IMG/VR virus record: IMGVR_UViG_2645727640_000024
Origin: a virus
Taxonomy: Duplodnaviria > Heunggongvirae > Uroviricota > Caudoviricetes
Reading direction: 5' to 3' (one strand)
Length of the DNA: 7,986 nt
The position numbers and the translations under genes were made by a program. The stretch's first letter is position 1. Every line of letters starts with the position of its first letter. This document shows, one piece after another, positions 1 through 6,690 of this stretch. The notes below the pieces were generated by a model. That model made no database searches, was not told the DNA's origin, and saw only the letters and a program-made list of their open reading frames with translations.

Positions 1-992
1 CGCTCAGGAAAGAATCATCGCTCAGTGCATTCACATTTGATGGTCCTTATCGCCTGACCGGGCATGACCTGCTGGACAATATGTACTGTGCTGATAACGG
101 ACGGTGGTATGAAACCCCGGTGGACTGGTACGGTCTGGCAAGAGCAGCCCGGCAAACGTCCTGGCATCAGTCTGCGCTTTACTTTAAGCGCAATGTATTA
201 CTCGGTTGCTACATCCCGCACCCGCTGCTTTCCCGGCAGGATTTCTCGGCGCTGGCGCTGGACTGGTTTGTGTTCGGTAACGCATTCCTTGAGCTTAGAA
301 GCAATATGCTCGGCGAACCGCTTAAATTACGGCACGCCCTGGCGAAATACATGCGACGCGGAAGCGATCTTGAATCATGGTGGTATGTGCAGGATGGCAA
401 GGACGCGTTCCAGTTTCGCCCTGGCAAAGTGTGCCACCTGATGAATCCGGATATTAACCAGGAAATCTACGGCATGCCGGAATATCTTGGCGCATTACTC
501 TCGGCCAGCCTTTCTCATTCGGCGGACATGTTCAGAAAACTGTACTACGACAACGGATCCCACGCCGGGTGCATCATCTACATCGGTGCAGCGCAGGTAA
601 ACCGCGAAAGCATGGACTCCCTGAAAGAAACGTTACAGGGCGCGCGTGGTGGTGGTGCGTTTAAAAACGTACTCATCCATGCGCCCAACGGGGGCAAAGA
701 AGGTGTGCAAATTTTGCCGTTCCAGCAGATCACTGCAAAGGATGAGTTCATGAATGTTAAGGCGGCATCCCGTGATGATGTGCTGGCTGCGCACCGCGTT
801 CCGCCGCAACTGATGGGGGCGATGCCGGGCGAAAAAAGTGCGTTTGGTGATGTGGAGAAGACCGCGCGGGTTTACGCAATTAACGAGCTGATGCCCGTCA
901 TGGAGGCCATGAAGCACATCAATGACTGGCTTGGCGAAGAGGTGATCCGCTTTAACCCTTACGCACTGCTAGATACCCAGCCCACATCCTGA
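1..992 (+). CDS. Q: Phage portal protein, P2 gpQ-like, 5'-partial (reading frame open to the window start; stop at 990-992)
   Basis: Frame starting at position 3 has no stop before the first ATG at 81, so the gene continues upstream of the window. Translation contains motifs I associate with P2-family portal proteins (ALAKYMRRG, HLMNPDINQEIYG, YYDNGSHAG, AAHRVPPQLMG, FGDVEKT). Recognition is from memory, not a search. Confidence 0.8.
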   Translation, partial: LRKESSLSAFTFDGPYRLTGHDLLDNMYCADNGRWYETPVDWYGLARAARQTSWHQSALYFKRNVLLGCYIPHPLLSRQDFSALALDWFVFGNAFLELRSNMLGEPLKLRHALAKYMRRGSDLESWWYVQDGKDAFQFRPGKVCHLMNPDINQEIYGMPEYLGALLSASLSHSADMFRKLYYDNGSHAGCIIYIGAAQVNRESMDSLKETLQGARGGGAFKNVLIHAPNGGKEGVQILPFQQITAKDEFMNVKAASRDDVLAAHRVPPQLMGAMPGEKSAFGDVEKTARVYAINELMPVMEAMKHINDWLGEEVIRFNPYALLDTQPTS

Positions 993-1443: not shown

Positions 1444-1469
1444 ACAAAAAAAGCGCCTTATCGGCGCTT
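1444..1469 (-). terminator. Rho-independent terminator on the - strand (stem AAGCGCC/GGCGCTT, 5-nt loop, followed on the - strand by TTTTTTTGTTTG)
   Basis: Minus-strand reading: GAAGCGCCGATAAGGCGC then a U-tract of 7. It sits 11 bp downstream of the stop of the 1478..1747 (-) ORF. Confidence 0.6.
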
Positions 1470-1477
1470 CAAAAGTA

Positions 1478-1747
1478 TCAATTGTTGCTGTTTATTAATC
1501 GCCAACCACGAACATATGCTTCATAGGCATCTCTGTGCCTTACAGTTCCAGCCTGGCTAAACGGAATGTTAGCTAAAACTAAATCATTCTGAGCCATAGC
1601 GCGTCCTTCAAGCGCATCTTTTATGCCTAGCTCAAAAGCACAGGCAGCGCATTTGTGCCGACCTTCTTGTCCTTGATATTCAGGGAGAGACAGAAATGTT
1701 GGATTATAACGATGAGGGTTCTTGCAAATACCTGTTTTAGCCCGCAC
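1478..1747 (-). CDS. Hypothetical protein (89 aa with GTG start; alternative internal ATG start at 1597 giving 39 aa)
   Basis: ORF with GTG start preceded by GAGGT 7 nt upstream; ends 11 bp before a canonical - strand terminator. Composition is protein-like, but I recognise no family. Coding status is uncertain. Confidence 0.3.
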   Translation of the reverse strand: MRAKTGICKNPHRYNPTFLSLPEYQGQEGRHKCAACAFELGIKDALEGRAMAQNDLVLANIPFSQAGTVRHRDAYEAYVRGWRLINSNN

Positions 1748-1768
1748 TTTATTTACCTCATAGGAAAA

Positions 1769-1849
1769 ATATGCGTGCCTTTACAGAGGTGCGTGTAAGC
1801 AATAAAATATACGACGCACATTTTGATTTACTTCGGAAGGCACGCATAT
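1769..1849. repeat. 13-bp perfect inverted repeat (ATATGCGTGCCTT at 1769-1781 / AAGGCACGCATAT at 1837-1849) separated by 55 bp; inner GTGCGT/ACGCAC inverted pair at 1789-1794 / 1814-1819
   Basis: Read directly. Both arms contain ATG-CGT-GCC, so each strand has an ATG-initiated short ORF beginning MRAF. Confidence 0.6.
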
Positions 1850-1876
1850 CAGGTTAAGTGAGTCCGACCGAGTTTT

Positions 1877-1910
1877 ACGCCCCAATAGTTGCTGCTATTG
1901 GGGCGTTTTG
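1877..1910 (+). terminator. Intrinsic-terminator-like hairpin on the + strand (12-bp stem ACGCCCCAATAG / CTATTGGGGCGT, loop TTGCTG, then TTTTG)
   Basis: Perfect 12-bp stem followed by T4 on the + strand; on the - strand the hairpin is followed by AAAACT, so it is orientation-specific. It lies 20 nt after the stop of the candidate 28-codon + ORF (1771..1857). Confidence 0.45.
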
Positions 1911-1955
1911 CATGGACAATGCCGCGCAATTATCTTGTCGCTCACAATGCGAACG

Positions 1956-1983
1956 ATCTTACAAAAAGGCACATTACTGTCAA
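1956..1983 (-). promoter_or_regulatory. Candidate sigma70-type promoter on the - strand: -35 TTGACA (1978-1983), 16-bp spacer, -10 TAAGAT (1956-1961)
   Basis: Perfect -35 hexamer with a 4/6 -10 at correct spacing. It would drive leftward transcription through the structured leader into the 1478..1747 ORF and the 1444-1469 terminator. Confidence 0.3.
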
Positions 1984-1998
1984 GATAATTGATCGTTT

Positions 1999-2043
1999 TA
2001 ATCGATAGATAATAGACAATCTATTTGTTTAACAGATCGATTA
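1999..2043. promoter_or_regulatory. Operator-like dyad symmetry: outer arms TAATCGAT (1999-2006) / ATCGATTA (2036-2043) and central palindrome AATAGA-CAA-TCTATT (2011-2025)
   Basis: Read directly. AT-rich, located immediately upstream (relative to the - strand) of the candidate promoter and about 70 bp downstream of the parR-like stop. Confidence 0.3.
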
Positions 2044-2111
2044 TTGAAGTAAGTGTGCCAAATGGAATGATACTGTCTCTATAAACGTGAGCATTTTTCG
2101 CGCAGATGCTT

Positions 2112-2427: not shown

Positions 2428-3387
2428 TTACTCCTTGTCCATTGCGTACAGCCCATTAACCAGAGCAAACTGTGGCACCCCGTCCGCGATGAAAGTCGCA
2501 TTAACTCCGCAGGCTTCGCGGATAGCGGGTGCCACAATCTCCGCCCCGCCACCGACAACCATCACCCGCCCGTAACCCGAAAAAACCGCCAGCGCGCGGA
2601 TCACGCGTTGTTTCAGTGTTTCTTCCTTTTCACGAATAACCGCCATCAGGCTGGCGTAATGCGCGTCATTGTGGATGTGCTGGCGCAGCCAGGCTTCATT
2701 ATGGCGATGTTCGATAATGGTATTGGCGATGTGGTGACTGGTGCGCATACCGTTAGTGGCCATCACCGACAGTACGGCATCGGCCATAAGAGAAACGCCT
2801 ACGTGTGGATCGCAAAACACCTGGCTGATACCTGCCAGTTGCCCCTGAACCTTTGCCACATCCAGCGTGGTTCCGCCCAAATCCACAATCAGCAGGGATT
2901 CAAACGGACTCATGTCAGCCAGTGCTTTAAAGCCAGCCGGAATGGATTCAGGCATAACCCGTACGTTACGGATAGTGAATGCTTCGCCGTTCTGGTACTC
3001 CACCGGGCGCATGACGTTCGCTTTTTTGCGGTTGATGTTGGCCATGTCCGGCTGTGCGTTTGTGTCGAAATATTCGCTCAGTGGCAGGGTAACAACCACA
3101 TCCACTTCCTGTGGCGTGATGTCTGATTTGACCAGCGCGTGATGAATGGCAATGACATTCACATCGCTGTACTGGTATTGCGTGTCGGTCGTCTGGACAA
3201 AGCGATCGCTGACCGGATCAAAACCATAGCGCACGCCATCAAGCATGTAGTTAGCAGGCTGCGAGCCACCGAACGGCGCAGACCATTCCGACTTGAAGCT
3301 GTTCGGGCTGATGGCGTTGCGGCGTTCGCCGTTCTCAGTCCATGCCAGCTTGATGTTGGTGGAGCCGTCGTCGATGTAAATTTTCAT
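2428..3387 (-). CDS. parM: ParM/StbA-family actin-like ATPase (319 aa)
   Basis: Actin-fold motifs shared with R1 ParM (R100 StbA): N-terminal IDDGSTNIKL (phosphate 1), LLIVDLGGTTLD (phosphate 2), VVGGGAE (adenosine), plus QYSDVNV, VMPESIPAG, LVNGLY. AAGGA 9 nt upstream of the ATG. Confidence 0.88.
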   Translation of the reverse strand: MKIYIDDGSTNIKLAWTENGERRNAISPNSFKSEWSAPFGGSQPANYMLDGVRYGFDPVSDRFVQTTDTQYQYSDVNVIAIHHALVKSDITPQEVDVVVTLPLSEYFDTNAQPDMANINRKKANVMRPVEYQNGEAFTIRNVRVMPESIPAGFKALADMSPFESLLIVDLGGTTLDVAKVQGQLAGISQVFCDPHVGVSLMADAVLSVMATNGMRTSHHIANTIIEHRHNEAWLRQHIHNDAHYASLMAVIREKEETLKQRVIRALAVFSGYGRVMVVGGGAEIVAPAIREACGVNATFIADGVPQFALVNGLYAMDKE

Positions 3388-3418: not shown

Positions 3419-3530
3419 TTTACGGGATTCTGAAATCCCGTTTTTGCCTGTTTTGTGCGCGCTTCATATATCGCTGCGCGTTTTTTGCTCATTTACGGGA
3501 TTCGTGAGTCCCGTTTCTGTCTGTTTTTTG
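3419..3530. repeat. Two imperfect 39-bp direct repeats (3419-3457 and 3492-3530), each an 8-bp-stem hairpin (ACGGGATT ... AnTCCCGT) followed by a T-rich tract
   Basis: Copy A TTTACGGGATTCTGAAATCCCGTTTTTGCCTGTTTTGTG; copy B TTTACGGGATTCGTGAGTCCCGTTTCTGTCTGTTTTTTG. Stems are conserved while loops differ. Copy A lies between the A stop and the parM start; copy B lies inside the last codons of the A ORF. Confidence 0.6.
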
Positions 3531-6304
3531 TTTCCACTGGTCAGGCCACCCCGCAGCAGGTCTGCTTTGCGGCTGGCGCGTTCAGTGGTTTCACTGATTC
3601 TCTGTGCGTGCTCTGCGTCGCGGATGGCGCGCAGCATGTCAGAAAGCACGGTAACGGGTGTTTTCATGGTGTTCTGGTCCTGCTGAAGTGTGGATGCCAG
3701 GCGTGCGGCGGCTTCAGGGTCTGATGCCCCCAGCTGTGCCAGATAGCTGGCGACCGGGTTATGGCGGATCTCCGTGCTGCTTACGCCATGATTACGGCTC
3801 AGACGCTGCCAGAGCTGCGTGATTCGGCTGTCCGGGCGGGTATCCGGTTTGCGTACAATTTCAAATCCCTGCGGTGCAATGATGCTGCCGTCAACGTACA
3901 GACTGCCGCCCCGTAACAGGTGCTGCATCTGTTGTTCACCGATATGCAGGCCGAGAGATTCAGCAGACTCCCGCCATTCTTTAGCGAGTAACTCGTGGTT
4001 ATCAGGCAAAGGCCGCTGCTGTTTGCGGCTCTGTGTCCAGTTCTGCATTTCATCGCTGCTGTTTTTTGCCTGTTTGTCACGAAGCGAACGCATCAGCGCC
4101 CGGCGTTCGTGCCGTTTCAGTGAGCGCATCCATTCATTTACTTCAACGCCGTCAGGAAGCTGCGGCCACGGTGCTGGCCGTTCTTCCGGCTGTTCTGTCC
4201 CGTTGTTGCCTGTTTCCTGTACACGGGGACAGTTATTGCCACGAGTCCAAGGGGCGGCAGGGCCGCCCTGAAGGTCAAAACCATTTTCGCGGGCGCTGTC
4301 TTCCGCTTCCGGTTTACGTCTTACCAGCTTCCAGTTATCCGGATGCGTGCACACACGGGAGGATTCCCCGATGAATGGCGACCAGATCCCGTAAATCTGT
4401 ACACTCTGTTCGCCGTAATCGTTCAGCTCATCTGCGAGGTCGTAGGCTGTGCGAATCAGGTAGTCCTTGCGCGGAACAAGTACGCCACCCTGTTTTTCAA
4501 TGTAGGTGGCAAAACATCCGGCATCAGCGGCAGCGAGTACCGCATCCATTGCATCATCCTTCAGCCGTTGTGGGCCTTCCGGGTTGCGTGCCATCTGGCT
4601 GGCAAGGCGGCGGAGTTCACGCCATACCTGACGGGAGGGGATGCCAAAGAACTGGAACTGGCGGACCCGGTGAAGGCGTGCCCAGCCGATGGCGCGTTCC
4701 ACGCTCTCGGCCATTGATTTTCCGGTTTCGTGGTCAACGCGTGGCTTGCCCGTTTTCGGGTCGATGCCATCCACGGCGCGGCTGTCCAGGTTCTTTCCGA
4801 TGTAGGTGGCGATGTAGCTGGTTGGCGTGCCTTTTGAGCCGTCGACATACTCCACCTTAAAGCGCGGAGTAATATCATTGCCCAGCTCGTGGCGGTCTTC
4901 CTGAATGGCAATATCGCGGGTGTGGGACACAATGGTGTCGATTTCTTCCGGATGAGCAAAGACCATCATATGCCAGTGCACGGTGCCGTCATGGTGAGGC
5001 TCCACCGTGCGGATGCCATACCAGCGCAGGCCGTCGCGGTTCAGTTTCTTGCGGACCGCCGCAAAAAACGTGTTAACCAGGTAATCGCTGGAGTCGCGCA
5101 TGGTGGCCCCGTTCCATTTGGGATTCGGATGACCGTTCTCTGTTGTGGCGTGGTATTTTGACGGGCAGGTGACAGTCAGAAACACCGCTCTGTCGCCACG
5201 GGCTTCGGCCAGAAGTTCCAGCCCCTTCATGGTGGCCATCATTTCTGCCTTACGGTGAATCGGGTTACTTACTCCCGCGTAATACACTGTCTCGAGATCA
5301 ATCGTGAACCCGTCTTCGTTTTCCAGCATGAAACTTTTCAGGAAATCGCGTGTTTTCTCGCGCTGTGCGCGAAACTCGCTTAACGCGTCCTGGCTCAGAT
5401 AGGGTGATGTTTTTCTGGAAACCAGACAGGCGGCGCGGAGTTGTTCTTCTCTCCACTCGCAACGTAACAGCCACAGTTTGCGTTTCCACCATTCCGCACA
5501 GGTCAGGCGAAGGATTGCGCCCGGCAGCAGCTCCGTGTCCGGTTCATTCCTCCGGTCTTTGTCTGTTGTCAGAGCGTCATAATGTGGAGGCATAGCGTGC
5601 AGGTGTAACGCCATGCGGGCCAGCATCTGATACGCCTTCAGCGTTACATCCATGGTCAGCTCGCCATCGGTCGCGCCAAAGCCATCGCAGAGTTTTTCAA
5701 AAGTGCCACTGAACATCGCCGCCGTCATGGTGGCCAGCGTCTGTATCTGGTGTTTGTTGAGCTGCGGCAGGTAAAGCAAATCGTCCAGGCGTTCGCGTCC
5801 GGCAAGGGAGCGATAGCCCGGTGTCAGCCAGCGGCTGTCGGTGCGGTCCAGACGTTCGAATATTTTGCGCAGGGTTCCGCGCGCGTAGCGTTCAGCCTGC
5901 CAGCTCTTTTTGCCTTTCTGACGATCGGCTTCCTGCTTCTTGCGCAGAAAAGAGAGGTGGCGGCTCAGAGGTTCACGCAGATAAACGGGAAGCACCTTCA
6001 GTGTGGCAAAAGCACGGGCCACCGGGTCTTGTTCTGTTGCCTGACGCTTGCTGATGATGCTTTGTGCCAGCTTTTCACGCTGTCCGGCTTCCTCAAGGGA
6101 TGCCATGAGTTTTTTACCCACGGTGGATTGTGCGAAAAAGGCTTCTTCCTTCGCTTCCTGTTCTTCCTGTGCCCTTTTGTTTGCCTCAAGGTAGTAACGG
6201 ATGGCGCGTTGCAGGTCGGTTTCAGTTTCCTGCCTGCGCTCCGTAAATCTGGCCGGATCAATGGCTGGCCGTGGTTCATTCCAGCTCCATGCAAACGCAC
6301 TCAT
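3464..6304 (-). CDS. A: Rolling-circle replication initiator endonuclease, P2 gpA-like (946 aa from the ATG at 6304; the track ORF begins at an upstream GTG at 6331)
   Basis: HUH-type motifs: HWHMMVF (metal-binding His pair), catalytic tyrosine pair YIATYIGKNLD, FLTVTCPSKYH. The ATG at 6304 overlaps the upstream gene stop (ATGA). The ORF is long and reads through repeat copy B at its 3' end. Confidence 0.9.
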   Translation of the reverse strand: MSAFAWSWNEPRPAIDPARFTERRQETETDLQRAIRYYLEANKRAQEEQEAKEEAFFAQSTVGKKLMASLEEAGQREKLAQSIISKRQATEQDPVARAFATLKVLPVYLREPLSRHLSFLRKKQEADRQKGKKSWQAERYARGTLRKIFERLDRTDSRWLTPGYRSLAGRERLDDLLYLPQLNKHQIQTLATMTAAMFSGTFEKLCDGFGATDGELTMDVTLKAYQMLARMALHLHAMPPHYDALTTDKDRRNEPDTELLPGAILRLTCAEWWKRKLWLLRCEWREEQLRAACLVSRKTSPYLSQDALSEFRAQREKTRDFLKSFMLENEDGFTIDLETVYYAGVSNPIHRKAEMMATMKGLELLAEARGDRAVFLTVTCPSKYHATTENGHPNPKWNGATMRDSSDYLVNTFFAAVRKKLNRDGLRWYGIRTVEPHHDGTVHWHMMVFAHPEEIDTIVSHTRDIAIQEDRHELGNDITPRFKVEYVDGSKGTPTSYIATYIGKNLDSRAVDGIDPKTGKPRVDHETGKSMAESVERAIGWARLHRVRQFQFFGIPSRQVWRELRRLASQMARNPEGPQRLKDDAMDAVLAAADAGCFATYIEKQGGVLVPRKDYLIRTAYDLADELNDYGEQSVQIYGIWSPFIGESSRVCTHPDNWKLVRRKPEAEDSARENGFDLQGGPAAPWTRGNNCPRVQETGNNGTEQPEERPAPWPQLPDGVEVNEWMRSLKRHERRALMRSLRDKQAKNSSDEMQNWTQSRKQQRPLPDNHELLAKEWRESAESLGLHIGEQQMQHLLRGGSLYVDGSIIAPQGFEIVRKPDTRPDSRITQLWQRLSRNHGVSSTEIRHNPVASYLAQLGASDPEAAARLASTLQQDQNTMKTPVTVLSDMLRAIRDAEHAQRISETTERASRKADLLRGGLTSGNKKQTETGLTNPVNEQKTRSDI

Positions 6305-6690
6305 GGCTGGTATCCCGTCACGCGCTGCCACTCCTGTGAGAAGAGGGCGGAAAGGCGGTTAAATTCAGCGGAGTATTCACTCAGCGAGGCACACCCGCCA
6401 GCAGTGCGATGCGCCAGCATTGCCGCAAATATGGAGGCCGGGGAGTCGTAATACGCCAGCAGTGATTCGCCGTGTGGTGTCAGGCAGTGCAACGCCAGCC
6501 CGTGTGGTGTGAAGTCCACGCGGTAGCAGTCGTCTACTGTGAAATAAAGGGTGTCTGCATTCTCCGGTTTTGTGGTGCGTGCTCTGTTGTCACGACCACG
6601 GATGTAGAGATCAAATAATCCCTGAAGAACGGGAGCCAGACGGGTGTCCTGTGTGCGCACCCATCTTGTGAAGTCATGAGCGTCAATCAT
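6301..6690 (-). CDS. Hypothetical early-operon protein (129 aa) immediately upstream of A
   Basis: ATG start; its stop overlaps the A start (ATGA). Position corresponds to the small ORFs preceding A in P2-type early operons. No family recognised. Confidence 0.6.
   Translation of the reverse strand: MIDAHDFTRWVRTQDTRLAPVLQGLFDLYIRGRDNRARTTKPENADTLYFTVDDCYRVDFTPHGLALHCLTPHGESLLAYYDSPASIFAAMLAHRTAGGCASLSEYSAEFNRLSALFSQEWQRVTGYQP

Follow-up and report, generated by a model that had tools for sequence, protein, structure and literature searches.

Background

In IS10/Tn10, the transposase is under the control of the antisense pair RNA-IN/RNA-OUT and of a Dam site located in the -10 element of the pIN promoter. 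Type I toxins are usually shorter than 60 amino acids (aa) and hydrophobic or membrane-active, or belong to known soluble families such as SymE and RalR. The controller (C) proteins of restriction–modification (R-M) systems are Xre-type helix-turn-helix proteins, whose gene is typically located just upstream of that of the restriction endonuclease (R). Here, we describe a locus that shares traits with each of these systems, located at about positions 1444-2050 of a 7,986-nucleotide (nt) stretch of the Caudoviricetes record IMGVR_UViG_2645727640_000024 (hereafter, the window). It carries, on the minus strand, the gene of an 89-aa basic protein and, on the plus strand, a predicted cis-antisense RNA of about 95 nt opposite the 5′ part of the gene's transcript. 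The original prediction, made by a model from the sequence, had seen there a self-contained minus-strand transcription unit downstream of parR that could represent either a third component of the neighbouring cargo or a regulatory or non-coding RNA gene with an incidental open reading frame (ORF).

The window belongs to a P2-like prophage of Escherichia coli and matches a stretch of strain 300709 at 100% identity. Rousset et al. 2022 (PMC9122126) describe the P2 region between gene A and cos as a hotspot of variable cargo, with a putative partition system at this hotspot in about a quarter of P2-like phages; no mention of the 89-aa gene was found in the passages searched. Literature searches with the accession, the PHROG and DUF (domain of unknown function) names gave nothing, and the papers found on Dam, prophages and antisense RNAs do not cover this locus.

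Results

A conserved protein gene

The minus-strand coding sequence (CDS; 1478..1747, GTG start, TGA stop) encodes a soluble, basic Cys/His protein, and we hold it as almost certain that it is a real protein gene within an independent cassette. Among closely related pairs of loci, the ratio of non-synonymous to synonymous substitution rates (dN/dS) was 0.055 for L002/L003, 0.057 for L004/L041 and 0.099 for L004/L042, indicating conservation at the codon level. The ORF was intact in all good-quality copies, including 34 of 34 near-identical loci and two genomes for which the Prokaryotic Genome Annotation Pipeline (PGAP) made no call. The output of this pipeline is uneven, some E. coli genomes carrying the ORF as a hypothetical protein and many others having no annotation for it; in L066 and L067, which lack this annotation, the intact ORF differs by N86H only. 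The only broken copy was that of Escherichia phage 503458 (L065, NC_049341.1), a record with multiple frameshifts in which the portal gene appears as four CDSs and parM is fragmented; since portal and parM are frameshifted as well, this copy was treated as a sequence error and not retained as evidence against coding. An unannotated homologue with an ATG start and 57% amino-acid identity occupies the same place in the divergent P2-like prophages L002 and L003.

The protein matches PHROG 3941, a phage family of unknown function, over nearly its entire length (E = 9.1e-49; residues 4-89 on positions 1-86 of the 86-position profile). Exhaustive HMMER searches gave 173 cluster representatives at 50% clustering, and a profile search gave 1,272 proteins. 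Most members are 80-95 aa long and display the motif C-x3-HR ... Q-x4-RH-x-C-x2-CA ... SQAG-x2-RHK, and homologues at 40-60% identity keep both motif and length across phyla. The original prediction had recognised no family, and this stands: Pfam (save for a weak, spurious match), NCBIfam and PDB sequences gave no match, and PHROG only this family of unknown function. No PADLOC v2 defence-protein family was matched at E <= 0.1. The AlphaFold2 (AF2) model of the protein has a mean predicted local distance difference test (pLDDT) score of 88.7, and no fold match to it was found.

Two Q-x4-RH motifs are present in the 89-aa protein, the second half of the family protein being a cysteine-less repeat of the first, while the nuclease fusions described below carry the cysteine-containing unit twice. 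Based on residue conservation and spacing, C8, H12, C33 and C36 are plausible zinc ligands. With an isoelectric point of 9.2, a grand average of hydropathy of -0.57 and a maximum 19-residue hydropathy of 0.58, the protein has no hydrophobic segment. A 39-aa version starting at an internal codon, which had also been considered, finds no support, since most of the invariant residues lie in the N-terminal half.

The sense transcription unit

The gene is preceded by a predicted sigma-70-type promoter, TTGACA-16-TAAGAT, on the minus strand (1956..1983; -35 at 1983-1978, -10 at 1961-1956), with 10/12 matches to the consensus. Transcription is predicted to start near 1949, leaving a 5′ untranslated region (UTR) of about 200 nt (1748..1949, its 5′ end placed from the promoter) that holds the complement of the antisense terminator, a long-range helix and a Shine-Dalgarno sequence, GAGG (1759-1756), 8 nt before the GTG. 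The stop codon sits 7 nt upstream of the stem of a Rho-independent minus-strand terminator, GAAGCGCC-GATAA-GGCGCTT followed by a T-run (1444..1470, stem 1470-1450), which forms the downstream end of the cassette. Promoter, Shine-Dalgarno sequence, GTG-initiated ORF and terminator were thus all recovered as originally proposed. A scan of positions 1000-2500 returned two promoter-like sites against 2.0 expected from shuffled sequences, and the sense promoter gains credibility only from its conservation in homologous cassettes: TTGACA-16-TAGGAT in L002, TTGATC-16-TATAAT in L004 and, by alignment, equivalents in 17 lineages.

The 215-nt leader RNA folds at -68.9 kcal/mol, better than its shuffles (z = -4.2). 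The 13-bp inverted repeat noted earlier in this leader is indeed perfect and corresponds to the long-range helix on the minus strand (1769..1849; arms 1769-1781 and 1837-1849 of 13 nt, 100% complementary), present in both the minimum free energy and the centroid folds and enclosing the -10 element and start site of the predicted antisense RNA. At its position, repeats are also present in L002 and L004, with other sequences. A strandless, operator-like imperfect inverted repeat (1985..2044; 26-nt arms at 1985-2010 and 2019-2044, 73% complementary) immediately precedes the sense -35; its conservation between the window and L002/L003 is about 90%, in flanks that diverge. This repeat marks the upstream end of the cassette, which the L002/L003 and window/L002 comparisons place about 285-300 nt before the start codon, i.e. 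at ~2050 in the window; the unit therefore reaches beyond 1983, farther upstream than first noted. Neither a LexA box (CTGT-N8-ACAG) nor a P2 Ogr-type site (TGT-N12-ACA) was found by eye near the sense promoter. Another inverted repeat, I6 (1927-1937 / 1981-1991), which flanks the promoter, is not conserved in L002 and was taken as a chance occurrence.

A predicted cis-antisense RNA

On the plus strand, we detected a putative promoter, TTTACA-17-TAAAAT (1780..1808), whose -35 element begins 33 nt upstream of the GTG, and downstream of it a perfect, GC-rich hairpin of 12 bp (arms 1877-1888 and 1895-1906). The original prediction had assigned this hairpin to the minus-strand leader. However, TTTT comes after it on the plus strand, against TAAAAC on the minus strand, and it thus reads as a plus-strand Rho-independent terminator (1877..1910): the hairpin itself was confirmed, but it most likely terminates an antisense RNA. 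In the same way, the suspected non-coding RNA is probably present, but on the strand opposite to the one proposed. Together, this promoter and this terminator predict a cis-antisense small RNA of ~95 nt (~1815..1912, plus strand, both ends placed from these two elements), fully complementary to the sense 5′ UTR at positions about +40 to +135, with a fold of -35.6 kcal/mol (z = -4.05). That this RNA is made and regulatory appears quite probable from the comparative data below.

Independent scans of the window, L002, L004 and L043 each gave a TTTACA-17/18-TAxxxT promoter, always at the same position. Across the family, TGTAAA, the complement of TTTACA, occurs at -34 to -47 from the start codon in half of the clusters (24/48, clusters defined at 85% identity). 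The polarity of the hairpin was scored in 23 lineages bearing the antisense-promoter signature: each has a hairpin of -12 to -25 kcal/mol located 66-111 nt after the antisense -35, with a T-rich tail on the antisense strand in 17 of the 23 and on the sense strand in none, and with stem sequences that differ between lineages. Owing to indels, RNAalifold yielded no more than 5 pairs from an automatic alignment of the terminator region, and the hairpins predicted for each lineage were relied on instead. Between L004 and L041, whose synonymous sites are saturated (pS, the proportion of synonymous differences, 0.64), the segment encoding the antisense RNA is the most conserved part of the cassette, at 90-97% identity against 70-93% in the CDS. 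The 5′ arm of the 13-bp helix lies within the antisense target and the 3′ arm adjoins the Shine-Dalgarno sequence, so that antisense pairing would free the 3′ arm beside it.

Rfam searches of the window returned sub-threshold alignments only, covering the hairpin alone (sar, RF00262, 22.0 bits against a gathering threshold of 43; ctRNA_pGA1, RF00236, 22.1 against 45), and no match was obtained at the antisense region in 12 related loci. Rfam matches unrelated to the antisense RNA of the cassette itself were observed elsewhere near family genes: sRNA-Xcc1 (59.9 bits, above gathering) just downstream of the gene in L104 (2804-2893), and C4 antisense RNA, c4-a1b1 and isrK upstream of it in L103 (1259-1457). 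In Salmonella phage BIS08P22 (L047, 2665-2901), a 78-aa 'hypothetical protein' annotated directly after cI overlaps the sense promoter and the antisense terminator, and may be a spurious call.

GATC sites at the promoters

One GATC of the window (1955-1958) overlaps the end of the sense -10 element, and two others (1991-1994 and 2035-2038) lie one in each arm of the 1985-2044 repeat. In the 300-nt regulatory regions of the 23 lineages, GATC was the most enriched of all tetramers, with 69 occurrences for 20.6 expected (3.3x). An alignment of 17 lineages revealed that it is positionally conserved at four places while the surrounding sequence diverges: immediately ahead of the sense -35, frequently at the sense -10, in the antisense start region and beside the antisense -35. 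Enrichment and positional conservation suggest Dam-sensitive control of the cassette, which we consider possible without calling it probable.

Distribution and independence from the partition genes

The partition genes (ParMR) of the type found in the window occur in ~1,278 E. coli genomes (at least 80% query coverage), versus 166-173 for the cassette. In other prophages, different cargo fills the parR-cos slot, namely DUF4760 with a hypothetical gene in an ST131 strain, an ead/Ea22-like gene in M19, and IS629 in O157 Sakai Sp13, and this slot is itself a variable sub-hotspot (L068, L069, L070). Conversely, the cassette was found without ParMR in Providencia lambdoid phages, where it occupies the opposite strand between Q and the lysis genes, in a Salmonella P22-like phage, where it comes after cI in a rexAB-like position, beside integrases in Serratia, and on plasmids. 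With its own promoter, its own terminator and this occurrence away from ParMR, the unit behaves as the independent, self-contained gene that had been anticipated downstream of parR, and the idea of a third component of the cargo is not supported by the same distribution. The best explanation of window positions ~1444-2050 is a self-contained, horizontally mobile accessory-gene cassette ('moron') in the variable parR-cos slot. In E. coli CH4793 (NZ_CM166350.1), an IS1-like element (IS1X4) is inserted inside the cassette, splitting the match in two.

Gene neighbourhoods of the family

In other taxa, the family gene lies directly beside operons of a D12-class methyltransferase and a type II restriction endonuclease, adjoins DpnII-type cassettes, or precedes DUF4062, PDC-S19 and PDC-M18 genes. 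Among 80 metagenomic loci, the neighbours included a D12 methyltransferase in 17, a DpnII endonuclease in 13, a DpnA-like methyltransferase in 12 and DUF4062 in 12. In L177 and L221 the gene is located exactly between the methyltransferase and DpnII endonuclease genes, other gene orders being found elsewhere. The domain is also fused to HNH, NOV_C, DndB/DGQHR and WYL domains. For the phage copies no recurrent downstream partner was found, most of them being solitary. These neighbourhoods and fusions would better fit a nucleic-acid-binding regulator or recognition module than a toxin, and a DNA-binding or controller function is proposed tentatively.

A DUF4062 protein of ~340 aa is encoded 40-100 nt after the family gene in L054/L055 (5315-6337) and in 12 metagenomic loci (L197, L201 and L207 among them), and the Pectobacterium version of this arrangement carries the antisense-promoter signature. 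The family gene and DUF4062 may represent a distinct candidate defence pair.

Other features of the prophage region

The window also comprises a portal gene (81-992, plus strand), separated from the cassette by the cos region, and on the minus strand ParR/StbB (2112-2426), ParM (2428-3387) and the replication gene A (3464-6331). Two inverted repeats of the form ACGGGATTC-N-GA(A/G)TCCCGT, at ~3422-3441 and 3495-3514 (window 3419-3518), are located immediately before parM, in an overlap with the 3′ end of gene A, and probably represent the parC centromere, or ParR operator, of the prophage partition system. The cos-proximal non-coding region (1353-1373) contains two GGATCC sites 11 bp apart (GATC at 1357 and 1368). 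In L002 and L003 (4263-4550), a same-strand 95-aa gene follows the cassette; it matches phrog_33929, with a weak match to PADLOC PDC-S02 (E = 0.005), and has no counterpart in the window. L002 additionally carries an Ogr/Delta-like gene between the portal gene and cos.

Discussion

Taken jointly, a real protein gene in an independent cassette and an antisense RNA that is made and regulatory form the reading that we favour as likely. From the conserved elements described above, we infer a model in which two nested units face each other. The minus-strand unit would consist of the sigma-70 promoter, the ~200-nt 5′ UTR, the GTG gene of a probable zinc-binding protein and the terminator, while the plus-strand unit, from its promoter ~33 nt upstream of the start codon, would produce the antisense RNA ending at the 12-bp hairpin. 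By pairing with the 5′ UTR, this RNA would hold protein output low, through duplex-dependent decay of the messenger (RNase III-type) and/or refolding of the leader beside the ribosome-binding site. The GATC sites at the promoters may add a control by the Dam-methylation state, coupled to replication, as in the IS10 transposase. The protein itself could be a nucleic-acid-binding regulator or a recognition module for defence genes, a role proposed because its homologues are found in GATC R-M operons, upstream of defence effectors, or fused to nucleases.

Several observations weigh against this reading. The antisense RNA is predicted from its promoter, its terminator and their conservation alone, promoter-like matches at single loci are no commoner than in shuffled sequences, and the lineages are related by descent, so that the promoter and hairpin counts are not independent events. 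Folds constrained to include antisense pairing made the Shine-Dalgarno sequence more accessible and the start codon less so, with no clear net effect. Regarding the methylation-dependent layer, GATC enrichment is lacking both in the Serratia/Pectobacterium clade and upstream of the R-M-linked homologues; the window variant lacks the two antisense-promoter GATCs and keeps only the sense-promoter sites, and its three GATCs in 84 bp are not significant by themselves. Finally, the window copy is solitary, with no R-M genes in the window, and the protein matches no DNA-binding domain by fold or sequence, DNA binding being deduced from genomic context only.

The rival explanations differ mainly in what they make of the protein. 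To read the ORF as incidental, the unit producing only a non-coding RNA from the minus strand or being a cis-regulatory leader whose hairpin is an attenuator, would accommodate the long, well-folded 5′ region, the GTG start and the missing PGAP calls in many genomes. Yet codon-level conservation (dN/dS 0.05-0.10) refutes the ORF being incidental. A large family in which length and motif persist across phyla and the confident AF2 prediction also speak against it, and in none of the 23 lineages does the hairpin have a T-run on the minus strand; we give this reading next to no credence. A third component of the ParMR partition system, such as a regulator or an accessory segregation factor, is very improbable: the gene does lie immediately downstream of parR in the window, and a divergent allele does so in L002 and L003, but the distribution largely refutes a dedicated link, since ParMR is far more widespread than the cassette, the slot accepts other cargo, the cassette exists without ParMR in phages, islands and plasmids, and it has its own promoter and terminator.

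A type I toxin-antitoxin or abortive-infection module, in which the 89-aa protein would be a toxin (for example binding or cutting DNA) and the antisense RNA an unstable antitoxin, is a more substantial alternative, though an unlikely one. There, a stable, structured messenger would be translated once an infecting phage shuts off transcription; hok/sok excludes T4 in that way. The predicted antisense RNA directed against a long, structured 5′ UTR with a long-range helix would suit such a module, as would the lack, in most phage copies, of a protein partner for this single gene, and the cassette sits in known defence hotspots of P2-like, lambdoid and P22-like prophages (PMC9122126). Against it, the protein would be an untypical toxin, being 89 aa long and hydrophilic with no membrane segment, and it matches no toxin family in Pfam or NCBIfam. 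Many homologues lack the antisense signature and are co-transcribed, 3-20 nt from their neighbours, within R-M or other operons, where a free toxin would not be tolerated, and nucleases carry the domain as an N-terminal module, a position that better suits a recognition domain. Rather doubtful as well is an anti-restriction or site-protection function, whereby the protein would act on GATC DNA, DpnII/MboI-type enzymes or Dam, being made when the GATC sites of the phage are un- or hemi-methylated and its DNA vulnerable, and serving in R-M operons as a safety or establishment factor. The adjacency to DpnII-family endonucleases (13/80) and D12 methyltransferases (17/80) in the metagenomic loci and the conserved GATCs at the cassette promoters are consistent with it. 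However, recognition of GATC by the protein is conjectural, cassettes also stand beside DUF4062, PDC-S19 and PDC-M18 genes that have no link to GATC, GATC is not enriched upstream of the R-M-linked homologues, and the protein is basic, unlike DNA-mimic anti-restriction proteins.

The antisense-controlled protein gene that we favour could also be extended to a sensor of methylation state coupled to a GATC-directed DNA-binding protein, an extension that we regard as speculative and rather improbable. The GATCs at the convergent promoters would then act as a toggle, un- or hemi-methylated DNA shifting the balance from antisense to sense transcription, and the small zinc protein would be a new DNA-recognition module reading GATC or its methylation state. 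Within DpnII-type R-M operons it would be a controller without helix-turn-helix or a safety factor, and where a phage encodes it on its own, it would protect or regulate phage DNA that is under-methylated.

The principle of the regulation is known. In the libraries and papers searched, we found no description of the protein family, of the antisense RNA or of the GATC arrangement. A family of more than 1,000 members without a name is found in the best-known prophage defence hotspots, in GATC R-M operons and at the N-termini of HNH and NOV_C nucleases, and knowing the target of the protein would identify a recurrent partner of DpnII-type systems and of the DUF4062, PDC-S19 and PDC-M18 candidates. 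Compact and portable, the regulatory region combines sense and antisense promoters in convergent arrangement with Dam sites whose positions are conserved, and lends itself to direct tests as an epigenetic or replication-coupled switch. These results also reveal an annotation gap, the gene being called inconsistently by PGAP and the antisense RNA being absent from Rfam.

Compared with described systems, the cassette occupies the same genomic slot as the cargo of the P2 hotspot (old, tin, retrons and others; PMC9122126), but differs from it in matching no PADLOC model. Like the sar RNA of phage P22, which limits ant in immI, the predicted RNA would be a short antisense RNA of a temperate phage limiting a small accessory or regulatory protein, and its terminator hairpin weakly resembles that of sar; however, at 22 bits for a gathering threshold of 43 and with only the hairpin aligned, it is not a member of that family, and both the protein and its genomic position are different. 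With R-M controller proteins, the family shares a small size (~80-100 aa), the usual place of a controller gene between methyltransferase and DpnII genes in L177 and L221, and, in the window, an inverted repeat upstream of its own promoter. In contrast to them, it has a Cys/His motif instead of a helix-turn-helix match, no C-box was identified, and the window copy has no R-M partner.

The likeness to hok/sok, symE/symR and ralR/ralA lies in a small gene on its own, whose leader is long and structured and which is opposed by a short cis-antisense RNA (here predicted) from a strong promoter, the whole carried by a mobile element and possibly involved in phage exclusion. The protein nevertheless departs from these toxins, being an 89-aa, basic, soluble protein with conserved Cys/His residues and not a membrane peptide, lacking sequence similarity to known type I toxins, and having homologues within operons that are devoid of the antisense RNA. 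As for IS10, a cis-antisense RNA of ~70-100 nt would likewise be transcribed from a promoter within the 5′ region and pair with the 5′ part of the messenger, and a GATC overlaps the sense -10, which would couple expression to hemimethylation and replication. The cassette differs in that its product is not a transposase, in that its antisense RNA would overlap the UTR from ~+40 to +135 and not the start codon, and in that related cassettes bear up to four conserved GATCs over both promoters. Loosely, IS10 is the nearest precedent known to us for the combination of Dam and antisense control proposed here.

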